NCBI GenBank assembly: GCA_034417075.1
Contig: DAOULU010000006.1
Location: forward strand, 138,283 to 202,282
DNA: 64,000 nt
Reading direction: 5' to 3'
From: Anaerolineales bacterium
GTDB lineage: Bacteria > Chloroflexota > Anaerolineae > Anaerolineales > E44-bin32
Position 1 is the first letter of the stretch, and the number at the start of each line of letters is the position of its first letter. Positions 11,387-28,809 of the stretch are shown piece after piece. Both the position numbers and the translations under genes were made by a program. The notes beneath the pieces were generated by a model. The model searched no databases. It saw nothing but the letters and a program-made list of their open reading frames with translations, and had not been told where the DNA came from.

Positions 11387-12739
11387 ATGAAGTACCACAT
11401 TTGGACCGCCGGCTGCCAGATGAACGTCGCCGATTCTCAGCGCGTGGCTTCCGCCTTGGAGCGCCTGGGCTACGCCGCATCCGAAGACATCGAGCAGGCG
11501 GATGTCATCGTGCTGAACACCTGCGTCGTGCGCCAGAGCGCCGAAGACAAAGCCTACGGCCGACTCCAATCGCTGAAGCCGCTGAAAGCACACAATCCCG
11601 ATATGGTCATCAACCTCATGGGCTGTCTGGTCGGCGTGAAGGACAATCCCAAGCTGCGGAAGGTCTTTCCCCACGTCGACGTATTTTCACCGCCCTCGGA
11701 TCCGAGTCCGCTGATCGAGTATCTGCTATTGAAGGATGCCCATGACGTCGACAAAGCAGAAACGGAACGCCGCCATGCCATCATGGACGGCGAGTTACAG
11801 TTGCCCCGAGCCCAACGCGGGAAAGCCGTTTCGGCTTTCATTCCCGTGGTGTATGGCTGCTCGCACGCCTGTTCGTACTGCGTCATTCCCTACCGCCGCG
11901 GTGCCGAACGCAGTAGGCCGCTCGCCGAAGTCGTCGCAGAAGTGAACACCCTCGCCGCGCAGGGTGTGCGGGAAGTCACCTTGCTAGGACAGATCGTCGA
12001 TCGCTACGGCAAAGACTTCGAAAATGGGGAAACGCTTAGCAGTCTGCTGCGCGCTGTGCACGCCGTCGATGGAATCCAGCGCATCCGCTTCCTGACCTCC
12101 CATCCCAATTGGATGAACGACGAACTACTGCACACGGTCGCCGAATTGCCCAAAGTGTGCGAGCACATCGAAGTTCCCGTGCAAGCCGGCGACGACGAGA
12201 TTCTGCGCCAAATGAAGCGCGGTTACAGCGTGGACGATTACCGGCGTTTGATTGAGCGTATCCGCCATCGAATATCGGACGTATCCATCGCCACCGACAT
12301 CATCGTCGGGTTCCCGGGTGAAACGGAAGCCCAATTCCGGCGCACCTACGATCTGCTCGAGGAGCTGCGTTTGGACGTCGCCCATCTGGCTCGTTATTCA
12401 CCACGGCCAGACACCGTGTCCGCAAGACGCATGTCGGACGACGTAGCCGAGGAAGAGAAGATGCGCCGTTTCCGGGCGTTGGAAGCCCTGCAAGCCGACA
12501 TCGCCGCGGAGATCAACGCCGGCTGCCAGGATCGAATCGTCGAGGTTCTTGTCGAAGAAAACCATCGTGGCCGATGGAAAGGTCGCACGCGGACCAACAA
12601 GCTGGTATTTTTCGACTCTGATGAAGATCTGCTGGGCAAATTGGTGCCGGTACGCGTCGAGTGGACTGGTCCCTGGTCGTTGATTGCATCCCCCACAGTT
12701 TCCGAAGAGATCCCCGCAGATATCTCCACCCCACATTGA
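11387..12739 (+). CDS. miaB: tRNA-2-methylthio-N6-dimethylallyladenosine synthase
   Basis: MKYHIWTAGCQMN UPF0004 N-terminus, radical-SAM CSHACSYC, C-terminal TRAM domain. The longer ORF from 11255 would overlap the divergent esterase gene and adds non-conserved residues. Confidence 0.93.
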   Translation: MKYHIWTAGCQMNVADSQRVASALERLGYAASEDIEQADVIVLNTCVVRQSAEDKAYGRLQSLKPLKAHNPDMVINLMGCLVGVKDNPKLRKVFPHVDVFSPPSDPSPLIEYLLLKDAHDVDKAETERRHAIMDGELQLPRAQRGKAVSAFIPVVYGCSHACSYCVIPYRRGAERSRPLAEVVAEVNTLAAQGVREVTLLGQIVDRYGKDFENGETLSSLLRAVHAVDGIQRIRFLTSHPNWMNDELLHTVAELPKVCEHIEVPVQAGDDEILRQMKRGYSVDDYRRLIERIRHRISDVSIATDIIVGFPGETEAQFRRTYDLLEELRLDVAHLARYSPRPDTVSARRMSDDVAEEEKMRRFRALEALQADIAAEINAGCQDRIVEVLVEENHRGRWKGRTRTNKLVFFDSDEDLLGKLVPVRVEWTGPWSLIASPTVSEEIPADISTPH

Positions 12740-13106
12740 ACTTTGTAATCATTAACGCGAGAATAACTCCATACACTTCTCGCTGATGTCCGATCGATCA
12801 CGTCGGCGGGACAGCATGCTTAAAACGCTGCTAGACAATGGAAGAAACGTGCAAGTCGAAAGATTCCAGTCGGTATCGTAACGAATATATCGCGGCAATC
12901 CCATACATCAATGGATGTACAAGCGTGTCACAAACCGAGCGCTTTTAGCGTTTCAGAGTTGTGAAAAACCTGTTTTTCGGGAGGAGGCTCACTCTTACCG
13001 CATGCCAATATTCCGGTGGGTGGCCAGGTCTTTTTGAGTCCTTCGCTTTCGAATAGCGTCCAGTAGCCACATCTGGCACTGGACCGTGTGAAGAAGTGGG
13101 GAAAAC

Positions 13107-15743
13107 ATGAAGCAATATTCACTCCTCATACAACTGCTCCTCTTATCTACTGTTGTCGTGATGGCTGCAGCATTCACTCCGATCCCGGCTAACGCAAATG
13201 GTGATTGGATCGTGGTTAACACAGAAAACGATATGGACGATGGCGTCTGTGACAATACTCATTGTTCTCTCCGCGAAGCTATCAACCACGCCAACCTTCT
13301 TCCAGGGAAGCAAGGGATTTCCTTCAATATCCCGAATTCCAATCCCTTCGCCATTATCCAGGCGTGCGGTCCACTGCCAGATATCACGGACCCGGTCCTC
13401 ATCGACGGTACGTGGCCGCTCGGACCGAATGCGCCCCCCCGAGTCGTGATCCGACCCGACAAGAGACGAGAATGCCCCATAACTCCTCCCAGCCATGGAT
13501 TCTGGATCGTCGCTAATAACGTCACGATCCGCAACCTCAGCATGGTCAATTTCTTCAGCTTTCAGGCATTGGTATCCGGCGCCATCATCGTCGATACTGG
13601 AGCAAATGCAGTCATCGAAAACAACCTGCTCGGCATCTACCCCACCGGTTTCGTTCAAGGCAATTACAACGCCATTTATTTGAATGACGATCACCACACT
13701 GTACGGGACAATGTAATCTCCGGTAACTGGAATGGCATCCAGGTTCGCGGCGCGGATGTAACCATCCAGGGGAATTTTATCGGCACCGATATCTCCGGGA
13801 CTACAAGTAATTTTTCTCTACGCAATGCAATTGGAGTGTTTTTAACACTTTGGAGTGAGGCGAGTGTCATCGGTGGCGTCAATCCCGGTGAGATGAATTT
13901 GATCTCCAACAACGGAACCGGTATCGATGTCACATCCTCCCATAACACGATAATTGGGAATCAGATCGGAACGGACATTTCTGGAACTCTGGATCTGGGA
14001 AATTCCAATGGGATCATCATAACAGGACCCCGCAATACCATCGGTGGTGACCTGCCTGGAGAGGGCAATCTGATATCAGGTAATTCCATGGCAATTAGCA
14101 TCGGCACTGCCGGGGATAACAATATTATTCAAGGCAACTTGATCGGCACCGACTTCAGCGGCACCCAGCCCCTGGCAAATGCACAAGATAATTATCGCGG
14201 CATGGTTATCTTAGGTCAGGACAATTTGGTCGGCGGACTCAATGCTGGCGAGAACAATCTGATCGCCTACATTATTCACGAAGGCATTGAATTCGGAATG
14301 GATGCCAGCGACAATCAAATCCGCGGGAACACGATCATCCATAACGAACTCGGTGTGCTTGTTAAAACAGATCTCTGGGACACCGCGTTGAGAAACACAC
14401 TGACACAAAATGAGATTCACTCCAACTCTGGGTTGGGAATCGATCTCGAACCAGCCGGTGTTTCACCTAACGACCCCGGCGACACGGACAACGGCGGGAA
14501 TACGGTGCTCAACTTCCCGGAATTCAGTGTCAGCATGAATGCTGCCGCAGGAACGGCATGCCCCGAGTGTGTCGTTGAGCTCTTCTTTTCCGACAATGAC
14601 CCTTCAGGGTACGGCGAAGGTGAAACATTCATCGACAGCACCATTGCCGATACAAACGGCAACTTCATGATCCCATTAAATCTACCCATCTCCGGCTGTT
14701 CCCGTTTTTCCGCCACAGCGACGGACCTCCTGGGAAACACCTCCGAGTTTTCCGAAAACGTGGAGTTTGGTTTTTGTCTGGCGGTTGATCCCTGGGTGAT
14801 TCTCACTCCCTTGGTTGCTTTTGGGTTAAGCCTGGGAATCGGCTTCTTTGTTGGACGAAAACCCAACATCAATGGGCGCACAGCACTCGCTGCAGCCGGC
14901 GCTGCTGGTTTCGCTCTCGCGGGGACACTGTTTGTGATCTTGAGAGGACCCTCCGAACTTCCTCCACAGGGATCCGAAGACTCCGAAGTTTGGTCCAGAC
15001 TGCAATCCTGCAGTGAATATCTCGAACCGGATAGTATATCCCCCACCGAAGGGATGCTTTTCGAGCTGGAAGACGACCCCCTGTTCACCTGGGCTCCGCT
15101 CGACAACCTACCCCCGGGTTCGATCCGCTGGACGGTTGAACTGGCGAAACTTTCGGATTCACCGGAAAGCCAGAGCACGAGCGAGGCTCATCTGGCATTT
15201 TCGACATTCGGCATTCAACCCGATCCCGCAACAATCTTTAAATGGCGCCTCAGCGGAGAATTAGCCGATAAGGACGGTGGTGAATGGCGCTTCTTCTGCT
15301 CGCCCACAGACTGGCTGCCGTTTCAGATCGGCTTGCTTCCGGTCGTAAAGGCACCCTCCGATACACCCGAACCGTCACCCACACCCACTCCGACTCCAAC
15401 TTCTCAGTATTGCGTCTATACGGCGATCGAAAACGCCAATTGCCGCAGCAGTGATTACAAAGAATCGGAGCAAATCGCCATCCTCATGCAAGGTGAAAGT
15501 GCAGAACTCTTGAGCCTCAATCCCGAATTCACCCATGGACAGTTTTTACTCGATCAGGAGTTATGCTGGATCTGGCTCGGTTTGTTGGATGGGCCCGAAA
15601 ATCCCTTCGGCACGTGCAGCGTGCCGATCATCGATCCCGCACCGGCTTGCACGTCGGAACTGGATGAGCAAGCCTGTATACTCGCCGGCGGACAGATCAG
15701 TGAAACGCGCACGACAGCACCTTACTGCGTCTGCCCGGATTGA
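13107..15743 (+). CDS. Surface protein paralog 1 of 4: signal peptide, CSLREA motif, parallel beta-helix repeats, internal TM hairpin, C-terminal 8-Cys domain
   Basis: 878 aa. Signal peptide MKQYSLLIQLLLLSTVVVMAAA, VVNTENDMDDGVCDNTHCSLREAINHAN, many NxIxGNxIGTDxSGT repeats, GIDLEPAGVSPNDPGDTDNGGNTVLNFP, ATATDLLGNTSEFSEN. Two hydrophobic helices flank RKPNINGR. PT linker, then the Cys-rich end ..YCVCPD. Confidence 0.9.
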   Translation: MKQYSLLIQLLLLSTVVVMAAAFTPIPANANGDWIVVNTENDMDDGVCDNTHCSLREAINHANLLPGKQGISFNIPNSNPFAIIQACGPLPDITDPVLIDGTWPLGPNAPPRVVIRPDKRRECPITPPSHGFWIVANNVTIRNLSMVNFFSFQALVSGAIIVDTGANAVIENNLLGIYPTGFVQGNYNAIYLNDDHHTVRDNVISGNWNGIQVRGADVTIQGNFIGTDISGTTSNFSLRNAIGVFLTLWSEASVIGGVNPGEMNLISNNGTGIDVTSSHNTIIGNQIGTDISGTLDLGNSNGIIITGPRNTIGGDLPGEGNLISGNSMAISIGTAGDNNIIQGNLIGTDFSGTQPLANAQDNYRGMVILGQDNLVGGLNAGENNLIAYIIHEGIEFGMDASDNQIRGNTIIHNELGVLVKTDLWDTALRNTLTQNEIHSNSGLGIDLEPAGVSPNDPGDTDNGGNTVLNFPEFSVSMNAAAGTACPECVVELFFSDNDPSGYGEGETFIDSTIADTNGNFMIPLNLPISGCSRFSATATDLLGNTSEFSENVEFGFCLAVDPWVILTPLVAFGLSLGIGFFVGRKPNINGRTALAAAGAAGFALAGTLFVILRGPSELPPQGSEDSEVWSRLQSCSEYLEPDSISPTEGMLFELEDDPLFTWAPLDNLPPGSIRWTVELAKLSDSPESQSTSEAHLAFSTFGIQPDPATIFKWRLSGELADKDGGEWRFFCSPTDWLPFQIGLLPVVKAPSDTPEPSPTPTPTPTSQYCVYTAIENANCRSSDYKESEQIAILMQGESAELLSLNPEFTHGQFLLDQELCWIWLGLLDGPENPFGTCSVPIIDPAPACTSELDEQACILAGGQISETRTTAPYCVCPD

Positions 15744-15835
15744 AATACGCAGACGTAGGGAACGATGGACTCCGAAGCGGGCATTTCCTCACTGGGGAGG
15801 TGTTCGAAAGCAAGTCAGAAGGTTTGGAGATGAAA

Positions 15836-18565
15836 ATGAATAAGAAGCGGATCTTGTACCTTACCCTCGCCGTAACACTGTCGCTCTTCGCCCTCGTCAT
15901 GCAGCCCATGGCTTCCGGCTACGCCGGAGGGGGCATTATCGAGGTCAACACGATAGACGACACCGACGACGGCGTCTGCGATGCGGCACACTGCTCGCTG
16001 CGCGAGGCGATCAACTGGGCCAACACCATGGCCGGTACACCGACGATCACCTTCGATATCGCCGGTTCCGGCCCGCACGTCATCGACCTGTGCCATGCGC
16101 TGCCGCAGCTGACCAGTTCGGGCACGACCATCGACGGCACCACAGAACCGAGCTACACCGGAACCCCCGTTGTCGTCGTGCACCCGGCATTTCTTTCCAA
16201 TACCCCGCCGCCGCTGACCCACGTCCCGCCGTGTATTCCGCCTTCGGTCGGTCTGTGGATCGAAACCGACGACATCACCGTGAGAGGCTTGAGCATCGTC
16301 GGTTTTCGCCAGACATGGCCGGCGATCGCCGCCGGGATCGTGGTCGCCAACGGCAGCAACAACCTTATCGATGCAAATTACATCGGTCTGGACGCCAGCG
16401 GCTCACCGGACGGTAACCGCGACGGGATTCTCCTCGGTGCAACCGGCCAAGAGGTTCGTCACAACACCATCTCCGGCAACGACACCGGCATCCACGTCCG
16501 CGCCGGCGAACAAACAATAAACGCTAACCGCATCGGCACGGATTTCTCCGGCAGCACGAGCGGAACCGGAATGGGCAACTACCGCGGTATCCGTATCGAG
16601 CCGGCCGCGGATGCCAACCACATCGGATCCTCCGATCCCATACATAAGAACGTAATCTCCGGCAATACCGCCGTCGGGATCGAGGTGGAATCCGCCGACA
16701 ACATTATCCAGGGTAACTACATCGGCTGCAACATCAGCGGCGATACCGCATTGGGCCAACAGGAAGGTGTGGTGCTCGGAGGCAACAGCAATCTTCTCGG
16801 TGGGAATAATGCCGGTGATGGCAACCTGATCTCCGGAAACGACATCGATGGCGTGATCGTTGGTGGAAGCGGTCACCAAATCCTAGGCAACACGATCGGA
16901 GCAGACATCAACGGCCTCCCATTGGGAAATCAAAATGGCATCTTCAGCATACAAAGTGACAATGTCATCATCGGCACAAACGCCACTGCCTCTGGCAACC
17001 TGATCGCGCATAACAGCTTACATGGCGTGATGCTCTTGGCGAGATCCAAAACTTACCACATCGCCGGCAACACGATCACCCAGAATGGTGGTGACGGCAT
17101 TATATTGGGAACATTTTCCATGAGTCCCGATGTCCCCGAGCAAATCACCATCAACCGCAACAGCATATACGATAACGGAGGCCTGGGGATCGACCTTTAT
17201 CCAGCCGGTGTTACACCCAACGACCCGGGCGATGCGGATTCAGGCCCCAACACGCTGCTCAATTTCCCCGAGCTCAGCCAGGTGACGTCCACCAATGCAC
17301 AGGGAACCGTCTGCGCTAGCTGCCGTGTGGAGGCTTTCATCGCCGACGGCGATCCCACAGGATACGGCGAAGGCATGACCTTCGTCGGGGAAGCGTTCGC
17401 TGACTCCTCCGGCAGCTTGAGCCTTCCACTCGACGTGAACCTGGTTTCCACCTGCGATCTGATCACGACGCGAGCGACAGACGGGGCCGGCAACAGTTCC
17501 GAATTCTCGGAAAACATGCGCGTTTCGCCCTGCTTCACGCTACGTCGGCCGTGGTTATTTGCACCACCCATCCTGCTGGGTCTGCTGGGGTTGCTCGGAG
17601 GCCGCCGCGCAGGACGCGGCAAACCCGGGCTGGCTTCCGCCGCGGGCGGCGCTGCAATCGGCGTCGGGATCGGCGGCGGACTCATCCTCCTAGCGATCGT
17701 ACTGCCCTTTGTGCACATCGAAAAACCACAGGAAGACGTAGGCTTACCCGCCGTGCAGCAGCCCTGCGATCGTTTCCTCGATCCGGCCGGGCTCTCGCCT
17801 GCCGATGGATCGATATTCGAGATCGATGACAACGGCTGGGAATTTACTTGGAGTCCATCACCCGAGATGCCAGATGGAGAGTTCCGCTGGCTCGTCGAGC
17901 TGGCGTCAGCGGACGGCAGCATACAGCAATTGACGACCACCGGAAATTCGCTGCCCTTCCTGTCCTTCGATACTGAAATCTCACAAGGCGCCGTGTTCTC
18001 CTGGCGCCTCAGCGCCGAACAGGCCATCCCCGGTACGGACCGCTGGGAGCCCTTCTGTCGGCAGTTCGCTTGGCACACCTTCCAGTTCGGCGAGCGCCCA
18101 CCGCTCAACGCCCCACCCTGGACGCCCGACGAGTGGAGTGAACCCGAAGACACGCCGACACCAACTTCAACTCCCACAGAAACTCCAACGCCGACTCCCG
18201 AGGAATTGGTTTGTGTGTACGAGGCGCTGCAGAATTCAAACTGCCGCGCCAGCGACTACGCAGAAGCGTTACAAATTTCGATCCTCATGCAGGGCGAGAC
18301 GGCCGAACTGCTAGCCTTGAACCCCGAGTTCTCCTACGGCCAATTCAACCTCGGCCAGGGCGCGTGTTGGATTTGGCTTGGCTTGCTGGACGGACCGGAA
18401 AATCCATTCGATACCTGTGACGTACCGGTCGTCGATCCGCCCTCACCGCCTACGGAGACACCGCCCGCCTGCACACCGGACCTGGATGAAGAAGCGTGTG
18501 TGCTGAGTGGTGGCACGTGGTCGGAGGGCGTGAGTCGAGCGCCCTATTGTGTGTGTCCCGAGTGA
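15836..18565 (+). CDS. Surface protein paralog 2 of 4 (same architecture)
   Basis: Colinear with paralog 1 (HCSLREAINWAN, GIDLYPAGVTPNDPGDADSGPNTLLNFP, GNSSEFSEN, loop GGRRAGRGKPG, end YCVCPE). GGAG lies 6 nt before ATG 15836. ATG 15830 and the TTG-extended ORF from 15740 are less likely starts. Confidence 0.88.
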   Translation: MNKKRILYLTLAVTLSLFALVMQPMASGYAGGGIIEVNTIDDTDDGVCDAAHCSLREAINWANTMAGTPTITFDIAGSGPHVIDLCHALPQLTSSGTTIDGTTEPSYTGTPVVVVHPAFLSNTPPPLTHVPPCIPPSVGLWIETDDITVRGLSIVGFRQTWPAIAAGIVVANGSNNLIDANYIGLDASGSPDGNRDGILLGATGQEVRHNTISGNDTGIHVRAGEQTINANRIGTDFSGSTSGTGMGNYRGIRIEPAADANHIGSSDPIHKNVISGNTAVGIEVESADNIIQGNYIGCNISGDTALGQQEGVVLGGNSNLLGGNNAGDGNLISGNDIDGVIVGGSGHQILGNTIGADINGLPLGNQNGIFSIQSDNVIIGTNATASGNLIAHNSLHGVMLLARSKTYHIAGNTITQNGGDGIILGTFSMSPDVPEQITINRNSIYDNGGLGIDLYPAGVTPNDPGDADSGPNTLLNFPELSQVTSTNAQGTVCASCRVEAFIADGDPTGYGEGMTFVGEAFADSSGSLSLPLDVNLVSTCDLITTRATDGAGNSSEFSENMRVSPCFTLRRPWLFAPPILLGLLGLLGGRRAGRGKPGLASAAGGAAIGVGIGGGLILLAIVLPFVHIEKPQEDVGLPAVQQPCDRFLDPAGLSPADGSIFEIDDNGWEFTWSPSPEMPDGEFRWLVELASADGSIQQLTTTGNSLPFLSFDTEISQGAVFSWRLSAEQAIPGTDRWEPFCRQFAWHTFQFGERPPLNAPPWTPDEWSEPEDTPTPTSTPTETPTPTPEELVCVYEALQNSNCRASDYAEALQISILMQGETAELLALNPEFSYGQFNLGQGACWIWLGLLDGPENPFDTCDVPVVDPPSPPTETPPACTPDLDEEACVLSGGTWSEGVSRAPYCVCPE

Positions 18566-18647
18566 GAGGCTGCATGCGCATTCAGCGAACGGGAATTTCC
18601 GCAGTGAATAGACACGTGAAACCATCCTGCCCCGTAGGAGGTGCAAG

Positions 18648-21509
18648 ATGAATTCTCGATGGATGAAAAAGCTTGGATTGTGCGTATTGAGCACGTTGTG
18701 GCTCTTGATGTTCACCACACCTATGGCGACACAGGCTGGTGGTGGCGTGTTCGTCGTCAACACCACCGACGATCTGGACGACGGCACCTGTGACGCCACA
18801 CACTGCTCGCTGCGCGAAGCGATCAACGCGGTCAACACCTATGCGGGCACGCAGTACATCTACTTTGATATCCCCGGTCCAGGACCGCACGAGATCATGC
18901 TATGCTCGATGCTTCCATCCTTGAGCGACGACGGAACGTTGATCGACGGCACTTCGGAGCCCGATTATGGCGGCACGGTACCTGTGGTCGTGATCAAGCC
19001 GGGGATATTCAACGTGTCTTCCTATCCTGGCTGCACGCCACCACCCATCGGGATCTGGATCGCCGCCAGCGACATAACCGTGACCGGCCTGAGCATCATC
19101 GGTTTCAGGAGTCCTTCCGCATCCATCGCCGGCGGGATCGTGACTCACATGGGCTCGAACGTCACCATCCAGTGGAACTACATCGGCCTGGATCCCTCCG
19201 GAACTCCCGTCGGGAATCGAGACGGGATCCTGATAGGCTCCGAGGCGTCGCAGATCTATTCCAACCGCATCTCGGGCAACGTCATCGGCATTCACGTCTT
19301 CCGCAGCGACCACATCATCCGCTTGAACTACATCGGAACCGATCCCACGGGCACGTCGACCAGTCCTACGCTGAAAAATTCCGTCGGCATCCTGGTGGAC
19401 AATCCTTCTAGCAACGTGCATATCGGAGGCCCGAATCCCGCCTGGATGAACCTCATTTCGGGCAACGACACGGGCGTCCAAGTCGTTACGGACGGTAACT
19501 TCGTGACCAACAATCGCATCGGCGCAGACGCCAGCGGCAGCGCAGGCTTGGGCAATGACACCGGCGTATGGGTCACGGGCAACGGGAACCAAATCGAAGG
19601 CAATCAGGTCAGTGACAGCCAGATCGGCGTGCTGCTGGCCGGAAACAATAATCAAGTCTCCGGCAACTTCATTGGTACGGACGCAAGCGGCGACCTGGCG
19701 TTAGGCAACGACACCGGCGTCCACATCATCGGCAGTGATAACGTCATCGGCGGCGAGATTCCGATCATGCTCGTGCCGGGCAGCACGGCAGGAAACATCA
19801 TCTCCGGAAATGACACGGGCATCTTCCTCGGCCCGAACGCACAGAACAACTACATTAAAGGCAACAAGATCGGTGCCGGCAACAGCCCCGACTCGAGTCT
19901 GCCCAACACTACAGGCATCCTGCTCGATGGCGCCGACAACAACACGATCGGAGGTATCTATCTACCCATGGAAGCCAACTGGGTGATGCACAATATCCAG
20001 GACGGCATCCAGTTCATCACCACCGCCAGCGACAACCTGGTTCAAAACAATTACATCGCCTGGAACGACCGGGGCATCACCGCCGGCGCCACGACCGGTA
20101 CGTCGATCCAGAATACCTTTCACTACAATAACATCTACTATAACGATCAACTCGGTATCGACCTCTTCCCCTGGGGCGTGACCCCCAATGATCCGGGTGA
20201 CGCTGACAGCGGCGCCAATAATCTACAAAATTTCCCCGTGATCAGTTCGGCTACGACCACGACAGCTCAGGGGACCGCCTGTCTGGGCTGCACGGTGGAG
20301 ATTTTCGAAAGCGAAGAGGATCCCTCCGGATACGGTGAGGGCATATCACCTATCGGTGAAAGCCTTACTGACTCCTCAGGAAATTTCAGCATCAGTGTCG
20401 ATCCGCTCTCTACCGCAGGTGTCTGTGATTACGTAACCGCCACGGCGACCGACGCAAACGGCAACACCTCCGAATTTGCAGAGAACTTCCTGATCGGACC
20501 GTGCTTCACGTTCTCACCCCAACTTTTACTCTTCCTGGGTGTGGTTTTCGTGTTCGGTGGTGGGGCCGCCGGCGGGAGGCTCGGACGCGGTCGCGGCACG
20601 CGGCCAGGCCTGGGAACCGCTGCTGGCGCCGCGCTGGGCGGCGTGATCGGTGCCGGTCTGCTCCTCGCAACCTCCTTCATTCCAATTTTCCGTCTACCAC
20701 CAGAAGAGGAACATGTGGTCTCCGATGGCCTGACAGCGCTCGTCCCCTCCTGTAATGCCTACCTCGATCCGCAGGCATTCGTGCCGCAAGATGGCGCGAT
20801 CGTGCTCGACGAAAACTTCGACTTCGCATGGTCCTGGTTGAACGAGCCTTCGAACGGACGGTTCCGCTGGAGCCTGGATTTGAACGGGCCCGACGATTCC
20901 GGCCAGCAAACGACGGAGGATACTTCGCTTCCCTTCACTGCGTTTGGTTTCGCGGTCGACGACGGGGATCGATTCATCTGGCGACTGACTGGCGAGCAAT
21001 TCGACGACTCTTCCGCAGAATGGAAACCCTTCTGTGCACCATCGGCGTGGCTAACGTTCCAAATCGGACTTTCACCATTGCTGGCGCCACCGTGGACACC
21101 GGAAACGCCGGAAGAACTACCTCCGACGCCCACGAGCACACCCGAGTCTCCTGCGGGAGTCTGTCTGTACACAGCGGTACGTAACAGCAACTGCCGCGCC
21201 AGCGACTATCCGGAGTCGCTGCAGATCGATATCCTCATGCAGGGGGAATCGGCCGAACTCCTGGCCTTGAATCCCGAGTTCACCCACGGTAAATTCGAGC
21301 TCGATCACGGTCAGTGCTGGATCTGGCTGGGATTGCTGGAAGGTCCCGATAACCCATACGGCACGTGCAACGTCCCGGTCATCGATCCGCCGCCGCCACC
21401 GACCGCAACGCCACAAACCTGCACTGCGGATTTAGACGAGGACGCTTGCATCGCAAGTGGAGGCACCTGGTCGGTGACGGGCGCTGCGGGATGTGTATGC
21501 CCGGAGTGA
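18648..21509 (+). CDS. Surface protein paralog 3 of 4 (same architecture)
   Basis: 953 aa. SD AGGAGGTG upstream. HCSLREAINAVN, GIDLFPWGVTPNDPGDADSGANNLQNFP, ATATDANGNTSEFAEN, loop GGRLGRGRGTRPG, end GCVCPE. Confidence 0.9.
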   Translation: MNSRWMKKLGLCVLSTLWLLMFTTPMATQAGGGVFVVNTTDDLDDGTCDATHCSLREAINAVNTYAGTQYIYFDIPGPGPHEIMLCSMLPSLSDDGTLIDGTSEPDYGGTVPVVVIKPGIFNVSSYPGCTPPPIGIWIAASDITVTGLSIIGFRSPSASIAGGIVTHMGSNVTIQWNYIGLDPSGTPVGNRDGILIGSEASQIYSNRISGNVIGIHVFRSDHIIRLNYIGTDPTGTSTSPTLKNSVGILVDNPSSNVHIGGPNPAWMNLISGNDTGVQVVTDGNFVTNNRIGADASGSAGLGNDTGVWVTGNGNQIEGNQVSDSQIGVLLAGNNNQVSGNFIGTDASGDLALGNDTGVHIIGSDNVIGGEIPIMLVPGSTAGNIISGNDTGIFLGPNAQNNYIKGNKIGAGNSPDSSLPNTTGILLDGADNNTIGGIYLPMEANWVMHNIQDGIQFITTASDNLVQNNYIAWNDRGITAGATTGTSIQNTFHYNNIYYNDQLGIDLFPWGVTPNDPGDADSGANNLQNFPVISSATTTTAQGTACLGCTVEIFESEEDPSGYGEGISPIGESLTDSSGNFSISVDPLSTAGVCDYVTATATDANGNTSEFAENFLIGPCFTFSPQLLLFLGVVFVFGGGAAGGRLGRGRGTRPGLGTAAGAALGGVIGAGLLLATSFIPIFRLPPEEEHVVSDGLTALVPSCNAYLDPQAFVPQDGAIVLDENFDFAWSWLNEPSNGRFRWSLDLNGPDDSGQQTTEDTSLPFTAFGFAVDDGDRFIWRLTGEQFDDSSAEWKPFCAPSAWLTFQIGLSPLLAPPWTPETPEELPPTPTSTPESPAGVCLYTAVRNSNCRASDYPESLQIDILMQGESAELLALNPEFTHGKFELDHGQCWIWLGLLEGPDNPYGTCNVPVIDPPPPPTATPQTCTADLDEDACIASGGTWSVTGAAGCVCPE

Positions 21510-21582
21510 AACCGATTCGAGAAGATAACGCCATGGAGTCGATCGAAAACCGCAGCCAGAGATTGATGTAAGGGGTACTTTG

Positions 21583-24183
21583 ATGAGAACTCGCAAACAT
21601 GTTTCCCGAGCCTGGCTAGCCCTGTGCCTGCTGGCGATGATGACACTTGCTTTTCCGATCACCGCGGAGGCCAGCACCTTCGTCGTCAACACGGTCGACG
21701 ATCTCGACGACGGAAACTGCGACGCCGATCATTGCTCTCTGCGCGAGGCGATCAATGCCGCCAATGCCAACCCCGGTGCGGACACGATTGCCTTCGACAT
21801 CTTCGGCGCCGGGCCACACGTGATCAAACTGTGCAGCCTGCTGCCCATACTCACCGACGGCGGGACGACGATTGACGGCACGACGGAACCCAGTTATGCC
21901 GGGACGCCCGTCGTTACTTTAACGCCCTCTGCGGATCCGAGTTGTACCCGACCGCACATCGGCCTATGGATCCAATCCGACGGGAACGTGATCCGTGGGC
22001 TGCACACCATCGACTTCATGCATCCAACACTGCAGCACGAATCCGCCATCTACATCGAGCGCGGCGACGGAAACCTGATCGAGTTAAATCACATCGGCTA
22101 TCAACCTACCTGTTCGCTTTTCAACACACAATACGGTGTCCGCATCGACATGGACGCCGGAAACCAGCGCATTCTCAAAAACGTATTCAACTGTAACGGA
22201 ACGGCAATCGATATCTGGGCTGGCAGCCACGTGATCCGGGACAACCTCATCGGCGTCGATCCCTCCGGCACTACGGCCATCCTCAACGGTCTGGGCATCT
22301 ACGTCTACGAAACCGCCCACGGCTCGACCATTCAGGATAACGTGGTATCGGGCAACATCAGCGCCATGGTAGTCAATTCGGACGACAACAAGATCCTGGG
22401 AAACCGCGTTGGTACGGATTGGTCGACGAACATAGCCATCCCCAATCAAGGCGGCATCAAGGTGAACGGCGATCACAACCGCGTCGGCGGCACGAATCCC
22501 GGCGAGGCAAACATCATCGCCGCCAACACCAGCATTGGTCTTGATCTGTACTGCGGCGCGGAATACAACCAGGTGTATGGCAATATCATCGGCACCAATC
22601 TTTCGGGAACCATCATCATGGGCAACCAGTACGGTGTCACCATTATGGGGAACACGAACATCATCGGGGGTATCGGCTCAGGCGAAGCAAACCGCATCCT
22701 CTTCAGCCAGGAAGCCGGGCTCAGCTTGTACGCTTTGGCGCACAAAAACCGCATCATTGGAAACGAGATCGCTTACGGCCACACGCAGGGCATTCTGGGA
22801 ACGAGTTCGATGGGCTTTCCCGAATCCAACACCTTCAGCCGAAACAGCATCCATCACAATCGTGCCCTGGGAATCGATTTGGAACCTGCGGGCGTCACGC
22901 CAAATGATCCGGGAGACGCGGATTCCGGCCCCAACACACTGCTGAACTTTCCCGTGCTCCAATCCGCCAACGTGAACACGGCCGAAGGAGACGCCTGCCC
23001 GGGCTGTACCGTGGAGATCTTCATCGCCGATTCGGGCAAAGGCGCATTCGGCGAAGGTATGAACTTCGCGGGAAGCGGCAACGCCGATCCGAGCGGTCAT
23101 TTCTCGATCCCGTTAAGCGGGGTCGGTTTCTGCGATCCGCTCACCGCCACCGCCACTGACGGCGCAGCCAACACCTCCGAGTTTGCCAAGAACATCCTGG
23201 CCAGCTGCCTGACGCTCGTATTCCCTTGGCCCGATCTCCTTTTGCTGGCGTTCATTTTTGCTGGCGCCCTGGGCAACGGGCGTCGCGGCCGAGGTAGATC
23301 GCCGGGTCGATATGCCGCCATCGGCGGCGCTGCTGGCGCAGTATTCGGCATCGCCCTGCTGACCCTGGGCAGTGCGCTTCCTAACATGCACTTGGAATTG
23401 CTCCCTCCAAAAGGGGAACCGAAGAGTGAACCACTTTGCAGCGAGTTGCTTCTACCGGATGGGTACGCTCCACCGGCAGGCGCCGTGTTCCAAACCAGCG
23501 AAGACCCATTGCTTTCCTGGACGCCGGGACCCGGCGCCGCCGACGGGATCGTCTGGCAGGTAGAACTCAGTGCACCTGACGGCTCAATTTTGAATCAAAC
23601 GACTCAGGAGACAAGCATCGCCTTCAGCAGCTTCATGTTCCCCACTCAACCAGGATTTTACCGCTGGCGCATCACCGCCAGAGAGGGCAATGCCCCAGGA
23701 GCCCTGGGGAAAGCCTTATGTTCACCGACATCGTGGATGCCGCTTTCCTTCGAAGGACCACAGCGCGAGGAAACACCGGAAGAAACGCCGACATCGACCC
23801 CCACGCCGACTCCCACAGAAGAGACGTCAGCATGTGTCTACACCGCGCTGCAAAATGCCAACTGCCGGGAGAGCGACTACGTCGAATCGGATCAGATGGC
23901 CATTCTCATGCAGGGCGAAAGCGCCGAACTGTTGGCGTTGAACCCCGAGTTTACCCACGGTGAGTTCGAGGTCGATCAGCACCAATGCTGGATCTGGCTC
24001 GGGTTGCTGGACGGTCCTGAAAACCCATACGGCACATGCGACATTCCAGTCGTTGATCCGCCTCCACCGCCGACCGCGACGCCACAGATTTGCACAGAGG
24101 ATTTGAACGAGGAAGATTGCGTGGCCAGCGGCGGTGTATGGTCCGAGGGAATCACGGATCGCCTCTACTGCATCTGTCCTTAA
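21583..24183 (+). CDS. Surface protein paralog 4 of 4 (same architecture)
   Basis: HCSLREAINAANANPGADTIAFDI, GIDLEPAGVTPNDPGDADSGPNTLLNFP, ATATDGAANTSEFAKN, loop NGRRGRGRSPGR, end YCICP. ATG at 21583 (TTG at 21580 also possible). Confidence 0.9.
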   Translation: MRTRKHVSRAWLALCLLAMMTLAFPITAEASTFVVNTVDDLDDGNCDADHCSLREAINAANANPGADTIAFDIFGAGPHVIKLCSLLPILTDGGTTIDGTTEPSYAGTPVVTLTPSADPSCTRPHIGLWIQSDGNVIRGLHTIDFMHPTLQHESAIYIERGDGNLIELNHIGYQPTCSLFNTQYGVRIDMDAGNQRILKNVFNCNGTAIDIWAGSHVIRDNLIGVDPSGTTAILNGLGIYVYETAHGSTIQDNVVSGNISAMVVNSDDNKILGNRVGTDWSTNIAIPNQGGIKVNGDHNRVGGTNPGEANIIAANTSIGLDLYCGAEYNQVYGNIIGTNLSGTIIMGNQYGVTIMGNTNIIGGIGSGEANRILFSQEAGLSLYALAHKNRIIGNEIAYGHTQGILGTSSMGFPESNTFSRNSIHHNRALGIDLEPAGVTPNDPGDADSGPNTLLNFPVLQSANVNTAEGDACPGCTVEIFIADSGKGAFGEGMNFAGSGNADPSGHFSIPLSGVGFCDPLTATATDGAANTSEFAKNILASCLTLVFPWPDLLLLAFIFAGALGNGRRGRGRSPGRYAAIGGAAGAVFGIALLTLGSALPNMHLELLPPKGEPKSEPLCSELLLPDGYAPPAGAVFQTSEDPLLSWTPGPGAADGIVWQVELSAPDGSILNQTTQETSIAFSSFMFPTQPGFYRWRITAREGNAPGALGKALCSPTSWMPLSFEGPQREETPEETPTSTPTPTPTEETSACVYTALQNANCRESDYVESDQMAILMQGESAELLALNPEFTHGEFEVDQHQCWIWLGLLDGPENPYGTCDIPVVDPPPPPTATPQICTEDLNEEDCVASGGVWSEGITDRLYCICP

Positions 24184-24352: not shown

Positions 24353-25498
24353 ATGAGCCTTCCCTCAAGAATAAAATCAACCACACTCGTTTTCATACTG
24401 GTGACGAGCATCATCCTTGCGGCATGTCATTTCCCAGGAATGGGCCCCACGCCGGACTTGTTCGCCACCTCCGCTGCAGAAACCGTTTCCGCACGGCTTA
24501 CGCAACCAGTGGAACCCGGCACAGATGAGACAACAGAGCCCGAGCCGCCCGTGATCGCCACGACCGAAGCCCCACCGACAGAGGAACCCCCTACGCCAAC
24601 GACTACGCTCACCCCCACGATCACGCAGACCACAATCCCCTGCGATCGCGCCAGTTTCGTTTCGGACGTTACCATCCCCGACGGGGAGGAATTAGAACCG
24701 AACGAGAGTTTCACCAAAACCTGGCGGTTGAAAAATAACGGTTCCTGCACCTGGACCTCCAGCTACGCGCTCACTTTCGACAGCGGTGATTCGATGAGCG
24801 GACCTGCATCCAAACAGCTTACCAGTGGAACTGTAGCACCTGGCGCCACAATGGACGTCTCCGTCAATCTGACGGCGCCGAGTTCGCCGGGAACGTACAA
24901 AGGTTACTGGAAACTGCGCAACGGATCGGGAGTGAATTTCGGAATTGGAACTGGCGGCGTAAATCCTTTCTGGGTTGAAATCAAGGTCGTTCCCAACACA
25001 ACCACGGTTACCATTCCCATGAAAGAAATGGAAAGCGGACAAGTGCAGTCCACCGGCTCGACAGGCTTTGGAAGGTACGTGGGGGATAGCCACACGAATA
25101 CGTCCACACAAGCCTTCGTCAGCTTCGATATAAGTGCGATACCTTCGGACGCCATCATCACGGAGGTCACGATAAAGATTAGTAATTTCAACGATACCGG
25201 AGATCCATTTGGCGATTTGGGACCTATGTTCATCTACAAAGATGATTACGGTAGCTTGGATTCGACCGACTATGTAAGCAGCACTCCAGGGACAGGTCGG
25301 CTTATCGCCTGGAATTCAACCTCTCAATTGGGAACCACGATCCCCGACAACGACATGGTCAATGCGGTTCAGAGTAAAGTGGGTAGCAGTCGCTTTAGAG
25401 TTCGATTCCAATTCGCCAACGACACGAACAATGATAACGGCGCCGACTATCTGGAACTGGTCTCGATTGTGATCAAGGTAACCTACTACACGCCATAG
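24353..25498 (+). CDS. Lipoprotein with NBR1-like Ig domain and C-terminal beta-rich domain (cassette A)
   Basis: Lipobox ILAAC, PT/E-rich linker. The CDRASFVSDVTIPDGEELEPNESFTKTWRLKNNGSCTWTSSYALTFDSGD...PGTYKGYWKLRN pattern is typical of bacterial 'next to BRCA1'-type Ig-like domains. SD GAAGGAG upstream. Confidence 0.85.
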   Translation: MSLPSRIKSTTLVFILVTSIILAACHFPGMGPTPDLFATSAAETVSARLTQPVEPGTDETTEPEPPVIATTEAPPTEEPPTPTTTLTPTITQTTIPCDRASFVSDVTIPDGEELEPNESFTKTWRLKNNGSCTWTSSYALTFDSGDSMSGPASKQLTSGTVAPGATMDVSVNLTAPSSPGTYKGYWKLRNGSGVNFGIGTGGVNPFWVEIKVVPNTTTVTIPMKEMESGQVQSTGSTGFGRYVGDSHTNTSTQAFVSFDISAIPSDAIITEVTIKISNFNDTGDPFGDLGPMFIYKDDYGSLDSTDYVSSTPGTGRLIAWNSTSQLGTTIPDNDMVNAVQSKVGSSRFRVRFQFANDTNNDNGADYLELVSIVIKVTYYTP

Positions 25499-25831: not shown

Positions 25832-26980
25832 ATGAGCCCTCCGGCACGATTGAGAACAACACTCATTTTAATGCTCGCGATCAGTATCGTCCTATCGGCG
25901 TGCAATTTCCCCGGTATGGGTGCCACACCGGATCTGTTCGCCACATCTGCAGCGCAAACCGTCGCCGCCCGTCTCACCCAACCAGCGGGACCGGGCAATG
26001 ATGGGACCACGCCACCCGAGCCACCGCAGATTGCAACAACCGAAGCCCCTCCAACGGAGGAACCACCTACGCCCACGTCGACCATAACGCTGACGCCCAC
26101 GATCACGCAGACCACAATCCCCTGCGATCGCGCCAGCTTTATCACGGACGTCACCATCCCCGACGGAGAAGAATTGGAACCGAACGAGAGCTTCACCAAG
26201 ACCTGGCGCCTGAAAAACAACGGCTCCTGCACCTGGACCTCCAGCTATGCGCTCATTTTCGACAGCGGCGATTCCATGGGAGGACCCGCATCCAAACAGC
26301 TTACCAGCGGGACCGTTGCACCCGGTGCCATTATGGACGTCTCCGTCAACTTAACGGCGCCCAGTTCGCCGGGTACCTACAAGGGATACTGGAAACTGCG
26401 CAACGGTTCCGGGGTAAATTTCGGCATCGGTACCGGCGGCACCAATCCGTTCTATGTCGAAATCAAAGTCGTGCCCAACACGGCCACGACTACGGTTCCT
26501 CTCGTCGTTGGCGAAAGCGGTCAGGTCACGAAAAGCACCTATATCTCCGGGGATAAAATTGCCGGAGATAACGGATCGAACGATTCGTCCCAGGCTTTCC
26601 TTAGCTTCAACATCACCGGAATCCCGTCGGATGCCGTCATTACGGAAGTCGTCATCGATCTCGGTGACTTCACCGTGATCGGGACGCCGTTCTCAGCTTT
26701 GGGGCCACTGTTTATCTACAAGGATGATTATGGCGGTTTGGATGCCTCCGACTTCGTCAACAGCACACCATCTTCCGGCCGACTCATAGCCTGGAATTCA
26801 ACATCAAGCTTGGGGAACGCCGTCTCGGATAACGACATGGTCAACGCCCTGCAAACCAAAGTGGGATCGAGTCGCTTCAGATTGCGTCTGCAGTTCAACA
26901 AACAAACCGACAACGATGGCGCAAGCGATCACCTGACTTTCAACACTGTGATCCTCAAAGTCACCTACTACACGCCCTGA
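25832..26980 (+). CDS. Lipoprotein with NBR1-like Ig domain and C-terminal beta-rich domain (cassette B, paralog of 24353-25498)
   Basis: Lipobox VLSAC. The N-terminal two thirds are near-identical to cassette A and the C-terminal third is clearly more diverged. SD GAAGGAG upstream. Confidence 0.85.
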   Translation: MSPPARLRTTLILMLAISIVLSACNFPGMGATPDLFATSAAQTVAARLTQPAGPGNDGTTPPEPPQIATTEAPPTEEPPTPTSTITLTPTITQTTIPCDRASFITDVTIPDGEELEPNESFTKTWRLKNNGSCTWTSSYALIFDSGDSMGGPASKQLTSGTVAPGAIMDVSVNLTAPSSPGTYKGYWKLRNGSGVNFGIGTGGTNPFYVEIKVVPNTATTTVPLVVGESGQVTKSTYISGDKIAGDNGSNDSSQAFLSFNITGIPSDAVITEVVIDLGDFTVIGTPFSALGPLFIYKDDYGGLDASDFVNSTPSSGRLIAWNSTSSLGNAVSDNDMVNALQTKVGSSRFRLRLQFNKQTDNDGASDHLTFNTVILKVTYYTP

Positions 26981-27132: not shown

Positions 27133-28809
27133 ATGGTTGCGAATGTGCTCGTAGTTGAAGAGACGGAAGAATTCGGGTCTTTGATCCGTAACGCGCTCGA
27201 AGACACCGGGCGGTATCAGGTGTCACTGGCGATGAACGCTGACGAGGCGATCGAGATCGGAGATCGGGAAAATATCCACTTGCTAATCATCGACTTCGAT
27301 CTCTCCGAAGCCGATGCACCGGCCTGTATTCAACGCATCCAATCCACCAATCCGGACATGGCCATTATCGCCATTCCGCCCAACAACGATCCACACGATC
27401 CTGCCTTTTCAAGTCTCTCAATCCGCGGCGTGCTGACGAAGCCTTTTTACCTTCCCGAACTCAACGAGATCGTCTCCGCAGCGATAGATCTGCCAACGCA
27501 GGCTGTGGAAACGGATCAGATCCGGGAATCCATCCCGCAGGAACCCCCTTTCAGCGAGGCCGCGGAACCACCAACGCCCTGGCCTAACGACGTGGATCAA
27601 GCCACGCAGCACCTCGCCAGGGTATGCGGCGATACGTCTGCCGAAGCGTTGATCCTCTTGCATCACGGCCAGCGATGGGCACAAACGGGTGGAATTACAC
27701 CGGATCAAGCCGAAGGACTTGCGGTCAAGATTGCTGAAATTGGAGTCGGCGCTGGCGCCCGTGGAGCAATCACCACCCTGACTCGTTTACCAGGCACAAA
27801 GCGGGATTGCATCCTGTATGCCAATGGTCTGATACCGAATTGGATTTTGGCGCTGGTTTATCCCTCCGGCACATCCTTCGGGATCATCCGCCGCCAGGCT
27901 GGGCACACCGCGGACAGACTCAAATACATGGACCTGGATGATCACGAGGAAGACCTCCCTCCCATACCGACGTCCGCGCCCGATACCGCACCGATTTCAG
28001 CTCGAGACGAAGAAGATACATCGTTCGATGAAATCTTCGGTGTGGAGCCAGATGCCCAGGAAATTCCGTTTTTCGAAGATCTCGACCTGCCTCCCAAACC
28101 GATCCCTGCGCCCGATACCGCACCGATTTCTGCTCGAGACGAAGAAGATACATCGTTCGATGAAATCTTCGGTGCGGAGCCAGATGCCCAGGAAATTCCG
28201 TTTTTCGAAGATCTCGATCTTCCCCCTCCGGAGCCGGATGAAACGCCAGCGAAGGTTGACGAGGACCGGATCGAAGAAGCGGACACCGCTGCAGCGATTC
28301 CGGGGGATTGGGTGCCGGACAAACCCAAACCTGAATCCCACCTGCCTTTCCTCGAAGAAGGCGCCTTCCCGAGTACGGACTCCGCATCAACAGCGCTGGA
28401 GCCCATCCCGCTGCCCGACGCGGAGTACTACCTCCCCGTCACTGCAGTGCTTGTGCCTCGGTTCCCGGAACACCGCCTGACGGGTCCCCTTGTGGAAAAT
28501 CTACAGGAATGGGTGGTTCGCCTTTGCCTGGCGTGGGATTGGCGCGCGGATGAAGTGTCGATCGAACCCGATTATCTCTGCCTGACGATGAGCATTTCCC
28601 CGGAGACGGCGCCTTCGAACGCGGTTCTCCGGCTTCGGGATGATCTATCACAGCGGATACTCAGCGCATTTCCCGAATTTGTAGACGACCTGCCTTCCCG
28701 ACGTTTTTGGGCGCGCAGCTACCTGCTGATCACCGGCGGACCACCGCCAGCGAAACGACTGCAAGAGTTCGTCGAAACCACACGCAAGAGCCAAGGGATC
28801 GAAATCTAA
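27133..28809 (+). CDS. Receiver (REC)-like domain, acidic repeat linker, C-terminal IS200/TnpA (Y1 transposase)-like domain lacking the HUH motif
   Basis: N-terminus VLVVEETEEF...HLLIIDFDL...LTKPF resembles a CheY-like receiver, with EE in place of the DD pocket. The C-terminus aligns by eye to IS200 TnpA: YLPVTAVLVPRF (YHIVFxxKYR), PDYLCLTMSISPE (xDHxHxLxxxPP), RFWARSYLLITGG (FWxRGYYxxTVG). Confidence 0.7.
   Translation: MVANVLVVEETEEFGSLIRNALEDTGRYQVSLAMNADEAIEIGDRENIHLLIIDFDLSEADAPACIQRIQSTNPDMAIIAIPPNNDPHDPAFSSLSIRGVLTKPFYLPELNEIVSAAIDLPTQAVETDQIRESIPQEPPFSEAAEPPTPWPNDVDQATQHLARVCGDTSAEALILLHHGQRWAQTGGITPDQAEGLAVKIAEIGVGAGARGAITTLTRLPGTKRDCILYANGLIPNWILALVYPSGTSFGIIRRQAGHTADRLKYMDLDDHEEDLPPIPTSAPDTAPISARDEEDTSFDEIFGVEPDAQEIPFFEDLDLPPKPIPAPDTAPISARDEEDTSFDEIFGAEPDAQEIPFFEDLDLPPPEPDETPAKVDEDRIEEADTAAAIPGDWVPDKPKPESHLPFLEEGAFPSTDSASTALEPIPLPDAEYYLPVTAVLVPRFPEHRLTGPLVENLQEWVVRLCLAWDWRADEVSIEPDYLCLTMSISPETAPSNAVLRLRDDLSQRILSAFPEFVDDLPSRRFWARSYLLITGGPPPAKRLQEFVETTRKSQGIEI
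27952..28215 (+). repeat. In-frame tandem direct repeat, 2 x 132 bp (44 aa each), plus a partial third start
   Basis: Unit 1 27952-28083 is DLPPIPTSAPDTAPISARDEEDTSFDEIFGVEPDAQEIPFFEDL. Unit 2 28084-28215 is DLPPKPIPAPDTAPISARDEEDTSFDEIFGAEPDAQEIPFFEDL. DLPPPEPD follows. Confidence 0.95.

Follow-up and report, generated by a model that had tools for sequence, protein, structure and literature searches.

A 64,000 nucleotide (nt) stretch of an Anaerolineales bacterium genome (phylum Chloroflexota; contig DAOULU010000006.1, positions 138,283 to 202,282), here called the window, carries four complete tandem open reading frames (ORFs) on the plus strand, spanning positions 13107-24183 and encoding the paralogous proteins P1 to P4 (coordinates of all features are collected in Table 1). 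In P1 the order of parts is a signal peptide, a CSLREA N-terminus, a beta-helix, a GLGIDL/PNDPGD motif with an Ig-like region, a predicted transmembrane (TM) hairpin, a middle domain, a PT linker, module A, a further linker and module B, and in the four-way alignment P2-P4 are 40-44% identical to P1 overall. All four proteins match the CSLREA_Nterm model TIGR04214 (38.3 bits for P1 and 40.0, 42.8 and 46.7 bits for the others, against a cutoff of 25) and all have Pfam matches to Beta_helix or NosD (NosD in P1), while the middle domain meets no Pfam family at E<=10 except Tissue_fac at 0.15 and is left unnamed. The subject of what follows is the cysteine-rich tail of some 110 amino acids (aa) with which each protein ends, and of which no copies beyond these four occur in the window. 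The tail is a cassette made of a divergent bacterial SH3 (SH3b) domain and an unclassified four-Cys knot, restricted to exported proteins of the Anaerolineales/Chloroflexota.

That the tail is the most conserved part of the paralogs was the starting claim of the original prediction, and the identity profile (mean pairwise identity in 40-residue sliding windows over the four-way alignment) bears it out, with 0.67-0.78 in the tail against 0.30-0.40 in the beta-helix, the next most conserved stretches being the GLGIDL..PNDPGD motif (0.68) and the CSLREA N-terminus (0.62). Eight Cys are indeed invariant in the last ~110 aa of P1-P4 (in P1 C769, 779, 820, 837, 848, 857, 874 and 876), aligned around the consensus that had been given, and the four DNA strings quoted as encoding one tail peptide with many silent differences are present exactly, at 15480, 18281, 21231 and 23902, differing at 6-15 of 51 bases. 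The alignment is not free of gaps as had been stated, for 7 aa of the Pro-rich linker are missing in P1 and 2 aa close to the end in P3, P4 being shorter by 1 aa, and what had been described as a single 8-Cys domain is two modules with a variable linker between them. One novel 8-Cys domain is rejected on the grounds that elsewhere either module can be found without the other and in tandem repeats, and further that only six of the eight Cys are kept in the wider family.

Two thirds of the tail is accounted for by module A (69 aa, 4 Cys), which is a divergent SH3b domain; the assignment is drawn from the modelled fold, from profile alignment to repeats that match Pfam SH3_3 (PF08239), and from marginal matches to SH3b entries of the PDB. 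The AlphaFold2 (AF2) model, made on the family alignment, has a predicted local distance difference test score (pLDDT) of 92.9 and six beta-strands in residues 4-58, as in the small five- to six-stranded SH3-like barrel by which the SH3b superfamily is known. Foldseek against the PDB returned SH3 domains throughout, the best being 9ovi_A, SH3-like_bac of Bacillus anthracis (TMt 0.78, root mean square deviation (rmsd) 1.6 Å over 62 columns), and others being the SH3b domains of 6biq NlpC2, of the 4krt phiSM101 (Psm) endolysin, and of 2krs and 2kt8. At the level of sequence, the marginal PDB matches are all to SH3b cell-wall binders (2kq8, 8b2f), and module A of distant family members reaches SH3_3 directly, with a best score of 29.3 bits against the gathering score (GA) of 27 and matches in 13 of the 88 family members scanned. 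Remote profile homology ties the module A of the window to the same superfamily, since hhalign aligns window-type module A (A6) with Cys-containing SH3b tandem repeats (A7) at 96.5%, E 9.6e-10 over 51 columns, and 8 of 9 A7 repeats match SH3_3 (best E 4.7e-7).

A census of Cys in the 53-sequence family alignment finds C14, C55, C90, C99, C116 and C118 invariant, while C4 and C72 co-occur, both being present in 36 sequences, neither in 17, and never one singly. Because the two are gained and lost together, it may be argued that C4 and C72, the first Cys and the fourth, are bonded to each other and close module A by a disulfide. The module would then be stapled by two predicted disulfides, one, C14-C55, joining the invariant Cys of NCR to that of CW, the other, C4-C72, running from the Cys that precedes strand 1 to the one that follows the last strand; two further pairs would be expected within module B.

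Module B is a four-Cys knot of ~30 aa at the very C-terminus (C-x8-C-x3-GG-x-W-...-C-x-C-P), modelled with pLDDT 86 as a short helix and a beta-hairpin, and belongs to no known family: Foldseek gave no significant structural match and the PDB sequence search gave nothing. Membership of the trefoil family, taken as a match to the hidden Markov model plus the six-Cys 1-5, 2-4, 3-6 pattern, is not indicated, there being no match in the window tail and Foldseek E-values of 2-4 at probability <=0.2, and EGF-like membership fares no better, with a weak hEGF match (E 0.0072) in 1 of the 88 homologs scanned and none in the window tail; both were rejected as sub-threshold hints. A match of the tail to a known family was what the original prediction had named as telling against it, and such a match now exists for two thirds of the tail, in the SH3b superfamily, module B matching none.

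The other part of the original prediction, that the tail peptide is kept by strong purifying selection on an old duplication and not by recent gene conversion, holds in this window, because silent sites are saturated, conversion tracts are absent and each paralog has orthologs elsewhere. Nei-Gojobori counts, made per region for the P1-P4 pairs, put the proportion of synonymous differences (pS) in the tail at 0.66-0.89, which is saturated and does not fall below the value for the remaining parts of the genes (0.66-0.77 overall), and the proportion of nonsynonymous differences (pN) at 0.17-0.23, the lowest of any region; since the synonymous rate (dS) is saturated, the ratio of nonsynonymous to synonymous rates (dN/dS) of the paralog tails can be given only as an upper limit, roughly <=0.1. 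A GENECONV-style test, in which the longest run of concordant polymorphic sites was set against 2000 permutations, detected no conversion tract in any of the six P1-P4 pairs (p=0.22-1.0), and the longest identical nucleotide run between paralogs anywhere is 20 nt. At identical tail residues the same codon is used at a frequency of 0.32-0.57, against ~0.40 expected from codon usage alone, with P3-P4 alone nominally raised (0.57 against 0.39 expected, Fisher p=0.043, uncorrected for six tests).

When one genome per species was scanned, the tail turned up only in metagenome-assembled genomes (MAGs) of the Anaerolineales/Anaerolineaceae. In L002 the four-gene array recurs with the same pair of ~400-aa genes behind it, and in MAG N4_180 the array is divided between contigs L003 and L004; in L001 three copies are present, immediately preceded by an ORF of MiaB-like size at the position that MiaB holds in the window, and L005 has only the last array gene, at the contig start, plus the same downstream genes. 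Outside the tail the orthologs share 79-87% aa identity for P2-P4 and 61-65% for P1, against ~40% to all other paralogs, and their modules A are 82-89% identical in nucleotides. Because each paralog has its own ortholog while paralog pairs are ~40% identical in aa, the duplication is much older than these species. Between orthologs dS is unsaturated (~0.5-0.6 for P2-P4, about 1.1 for P1) and dN/dS is lowest in module A, at 0.06-0.09, compared with 0.11-0.18 in the beta-helix, 0.09-0.30 in the TM hairpin and 0.16-0.26 in the middle domain. Module A is then the most constrained part, though only about twofold more so than the beta-helix, and the N-terminal halves, having diverged early, are by now conserved too. 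The outer domain that had been called variable is in the beta-helix divergent between paralogs, yet it is well constrained between orthologs and not free to vary. As the orthologs of P1 are far more diverged than those of P2-P4, P1 either evolves faster or has a different history. GC content is lower around P1 (0.53-0.54 at 12001-16000) than around P2-P4 (0.58-0.60 at 16001-24000).

The view that the tails are kept alike by gene conversion between tandem copies, as concerted evolution and not through selection on the peptide, finds its material in the mosaic module history of the related genomes. Module B of the window P2 is only 55-58% nt identical to that of its counterparts L1_b and L2_b (pS 0.92-1.05), whereas module A just upstream is 83-88% identical, and the modules B of L1_b, L2_b and L2_c are 80-84% identical in nucleotides among themselves. 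Similarly module A of L1_c (L001 10436-13060) and of L5_a (L005 343-3000) is only 65% nt identical to that of the window P4 (pS 0.83), the proteins being 79% aa identical outside it, and it has been replaced relative to P4. The raised same-codon use of P3-P4 points the same way, but its p value stands before correction for six tests. However the module B shared by L2_b and L2_c has a pS of 0.61 despite a pN of 0.04, and because of this such exchanges in related genomes are old and came under purifying selection afterwards; in the window every pair is silently saturated and no tract exceeds the permutation expectation. Recent conversion was rejected on the saturated pS, the permutation tests (p>0.2), the near-equilibrium codon identity and the grouping with orthologs, and as a reading it is largely refuted, so poorly supported that conversion as the keeper of the tails is very improbable. 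The exchanges show that modules A and B are units that can be exchanged separately over long time scales, and this mosaic history elsewhere leaves the conclusion on selection for the window unchanged. The array offers a clean case of domain-specific purifying selection, with one module kept while the rest has diverged and without concerted evolution. In L007 (1752-2264) a 170-aa gene (protein P0002) stands at the P1 position, after a 458-aa gene and before a 903-aa paralog, and its signal peptide and CSLREAINKAN run straight into the NCRSSDY of module A; either ~700 aa have been deleted in frame or the assembly is chimeric here.

Beyond these arrays the tail is rare. A word-index profile search with the four tails found only 20 proteins, and the wider profile search that had been suggested gave, when run with the four tails, 106 matches in 1.84 billion cluster representatives. 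Among the two-module matches 65 of 68 end <=2 aa from the protein C-terminus, on passengers that include CSLREA beta-helix proteins with the same TM hairpin, Chlam_PMP beta-helices, fn3/Ig and SdrD_B proteins, and many short lipoproteins with acidic linkers. Module A also occurs alone in tandem (P0073, P0090, P0104) or with a different tail (P0068, P0085), and module B occurs alone, in tandem in P0078 and singly in P0020, P0109, P0114 and P0115; such stand-alone and tandem occurrence resembles, by analogy, the behaviour of binding modules.

Both halves of P1-P4 would lie outside the cell, to judge from the N-terminal signal peptide and the positive-inside rule, and such a location agrees both with the pairing of the Cys and with the finding of this tail on lipoproteins that are secreted. 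The signal peptide would export the CSLREA/beta-helix half, and the TM hairpin with its basic cytoplasmic loop would return the chain to the outside, so placing the middle domain, the PT linker and the SH3b and knot tail in an extracytoplasmic position. In all four paralogs the hairpin segments are Gly/Ala-rich and lie mid-protein around an RRxGRGR-type loop; the first hydrophobic segment of P2 is weak, falling below the Kyte-Doolittle threshold used. A hairpin joining two extracytoplasmic halves is an unusual topology for a beta-helix surface protein, and the first hydrophobic segment together with the basic loop also looks like a sorting tail once C-terminal and now internal.

The explanation somewhat favoured, by analogy with known anchors, is that the tail is a two-part disulfide-bonded extracytoplasmic cassette which binds one common envelope ligand non-covalently and so acts as an anchor. 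The ligand may be peptidoglycan or another wall polymer, held in the way that SH3b and GW modules anchor lysins and adhesins. One common ligand is proposed as the reason for the uniform constraint, in that it would keep the same peptide under strong purifying selection in four diverged paralogs and in unrelated exported proteins. The wall-binding role is taken from the function of the SH3b family, the SH3b domains of lysostaphin (PMC6461655) and of Clostridium perfringens Acp (PMC8470621) being cell-wall (peptidoglycan)-binding anchors. The shared binding partner of the original prediction fits a module A that is an SH3b-type binding domain. Several points weigh against an SH3b wall anchor. 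The Foldseek E-values of module A are weak (4e-3 to 3e-2), its TM-score and rmsd being good, and the window tails reach no Pfam or NCBIfam model, the P2 tail having no Pfam match, SH3_3 included, even at E<=10 and the full proteins no SH3 match at E<=1. The usual SH3b passenger, a recognised peptidoglycan hydrolase domain, is present in none of the 88 homologs scanned, and P1-P4 already have a predicted TM hairpin, so that the need for an extra anchor is not obvious. Since SH3 domains of the eukaryotic type bind peptides, a protein partner is equally compatible with the fold.

A protein partner is indeed what the most serious rival proposes, with the tail as a docking module for a common partner (an S-layer or sheath subunit, the neighbouring NBR1-Ig lipoproteins, or other tails) that would assemble different ectodomains on one scaffold in the cohesin/dockerin manner. 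SH3 is a classic fold for the binding of peptides and the Foldseek matches include Abl SH3 structures, and the rival is made serious by the missing hydrolase passengers and by the invariant family-specific loops SDYxE and NPEFTHG, which are absent from generic SH3_3; moreover two N_BRCA1_IG lipoprotein genes lie 3' of the window array, with ORFs of matching size and position in L001, L002, L004 and L005. However the best structural and sequence neighbours of module A are bacterial cell-wall-binding SH3b domains and not peptide-binding SH3 domains, and no candidate partner with co-variation has appeared, so that docking is held to be rather unlikely.

The strictly C-terminal position and the many unrelated passengers within one lineage could also suggest a sorting or secretion signal for a lineage-specific machine, perhaps removed (compare the C-terminal domain (CTD) of the type IX secretion system (T9SS), sortase and PEP-CTERM). 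Such a signal is improbable, and poorly supported, given that all the proteins have ordinary N-terminal signal or lipoprotein peptides, that the fold is that of SH3b and not the CTD beta-sandwich, and that tandem repeats of either module also stand inside proteins (P0073, P0078, P0090, P0104), unlike sorting signals. The proteins end in C-x-C-P-(E/D) without a hydrophobic tail, there is no TM-plus-basic tail at the C-terminus, and no Pfam sorting domain matches at E<=10, T9SS Por_Secre_tail, PEP-CTERM and LPXTG all being without a Pfam or NCBIfam match. Also poorly supported, and hardly to be credited at all, is a cytoplasmic C-terminal half in which the eight Cys form metal-binding (Zn) clusters: the terminal CxC motif, the high Cys density and the weak first hydrophobic segment of P2 speak for it, but all four proteins have two hydrophobic segments around an Arg-rich loop, the same tail occurs on signal-peptide or lipoprotein proteins without any TM segment, C4 and C72 are gained and lost as a pair, and no pattern of His or Asp ligands is seen.

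Going further than the envelope anchor, the SH3b and knot pair might tentatively be regarded as a lineage-specific general surface-display tag of the Anaerolineales, a counterpart of SLH, LysM and GW, with the stapled SH3b as the part that recognises an envelope polymer peculiar to the Chloroflexota and module B as a glycan-binding mini-fold of a new kind; a doubtful idea as yet, it would if true give the first sequence handle on how these envelopes retain exoproteins. Anaerolineales are abundant in sludge, sediments and bioreactors and are rarely cultured, and to our knowledge almost nothing is understood of the way in which their envelope keeps its surface proteins in place. A compact C-terminal cassette on dozens of different exported proteins is a searchable signature of the Anaerolineales surface proteome, and the 110-aa tail is a defined reagent for finding the envelope ligand.

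Table 1. Features of the four-gene array, in window positions.
Feature	Positions	Strand	Basis	Remarks
Paralog P1	13107..15743	+	ORF	878 aa
P1 predicted TM hairpin	14784..14963	+	Kyte-Doolittle peaks	two hydrophobic segments around a short basic loop (GRKPNINGR)
P1 module A, predicted divergent SH3b	15411..15617	+	translation, AF2, Foldseek, hhalign	4 Cys (C769, C779, C820, C837)
P1 Pro-rich inter-module linker	15618..15647	+	alignment	7 aa shorter than the linkers of P2-P4
P1 module B, 4-Cys mini-domain	15648..15740	+		at the protein end, C-x8-C-x3-GG-x(10-12)-C-x-C-P
Paralog P2	15830..18565	+	ORF, alignment, CSLREA_Nterm and Pfam matches	
P2 predicted TM hairpin	17540..17719	+		equivalent of the P1 hairpin
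P2 module A (SH3b-like)	18212..18418	+	AF2, Foldseek	
P2 module B	18470..18562	+		orthology with the L001 and L002 counterparts of P2 does not extend to this module
Paralog P3	18648..21509	+	ORF, alignment, CSLREA_Nterm match	953 aa
P3 predicted TM hairpin	20511..20690	+		equivalent of the P1 hairpin
P3 module A (SH3b-like)	21162..21368	+		
P3 module B	21420..21506	+		
Paralog P4	21580..24183	+	ORF, alignment, CSLREA_Nterm match	867 aa
P4 predicted TM hairpin	23218..23397	+		equivalent of the P1 hairpin
P4 module A (SH3b-like)	23833..24039	+		
P4 module B	24091..24180	+		

The ORF of P2 opens at a TTG at 15740, overlapping the P1 stop codon; because a signal-peptide-like sequence begins only at the ATG of 15830 or 15836, one of these is probably the true start. 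At the end of the beta-helix a GLGIDLxPxGVxPNDPGDxDxGxNxxxNFP motif (~14430-14520, P1 residues 443-471, with equivalents in the paralogs) is followed by a region with weak Big_6 Ig matches. The genes flanking the array are of housekeeping type (MiaB-like, esterase, PolA, CdaA/DAC, YbbR, EngA), and the array is a chromosomal surface-protein cluster and not a mobile element.

Downstream on the plus strand, at 24353-25498 and 25832-26980, is a tandem pair of paralogs, lipoprotein-like and both carrying an N_BRCA1_IG (NBR1-type Ig) domain at E 1e-27 to 1e-29. Their Ig domain is nearly identical in protein (pN 0.01-0.04) at a pS of 0.38-0.64, while the C-terminal halves diverge, and on that pS in the conserved domain the pair was rejected as an internal example of gene conversion. 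Beyond them a 558-aa ORF (27133-28806, plus strand) combines a response-regulator receiver (residues 5-114) with an IS200-like Y1 transposase domain (437-548), and ORFs of similar size stand at the same syntenic position in L004 (4654-6198) and L005 (5954-7498); the fusion suggests a domesticated transposase domain under two-component control.

Among known systems, the N-terminal model and beta-helix matches of P1-P4 place them with the CSLREA_Nterm beta-helix surface proteins, but that family is defined by the N-terminus only and the TM hairpin and tail lie outside its scope. For module B the predicted helix and two-stranded hairpin with disulfides recalls the core of the trefoil (P-type, PF00088), with TFF1, TFF3 and pSP among the weak Foldseek matches and one relative's module B giving Trefoil at E 0.065; it has however four Cys and not six, and is without the CC-[FW] and WCF motifs, and so the likeness is a lead only and not membership. 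The working analogy for the tail as a whole is with the GW modules found in InlB and Ami of Listeria, which are SH3-like, stand as repeats at the C-terminus and hold a surface protein to lipoteichoic acid non-covalently; in both cases the link between an adhesin-type ectodomain and a polymer of the envelope would be a non-covalent one made by an SH3-like C-terminal module. In contrast to the tail, GW modules have no disulfides and are repeated, where here a single copy is joined to a knot, and there is no sequence match, no Pfam family, GW included, matching the tail at E<=10. The entry 8b2f, described as an SH3-like cell wall binding domain-containing protein, has Cys at two aligned positions (HCR ... 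GCY) corresponding to C14 and C55, although the profile match is marginal and not significant (E 0.2) and 8b2f is without module B. Closest are the SH3b domains (Pfam SH3_3) of lysins and autolysins, which share with module A the beta-barrel fold and the N-x-R ... G ... W core motifs, a homology shown through intermediates, and the arrangement as a terminal module on a flexible linker to a variable functional domain. Module A differs from them in scoring below the Pfam model, in its two putative disulfide staples (NCR-CW and N-term-C-term), in having SDYxE in place of the usual GP after NxR and an invariant NPEFTHG loop, in its passengers, which are beta-helix or adhesin-like proteins and not hydrolases, and, in the window, in always being followed by module B. 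Overall the finding is useful and not surprising, the larger part of the tail belonging to the well-known SH3b anchor superfamily, and what is new here is the disulfide-stapled SH3b variant together with the unclassified four-Cys knot.

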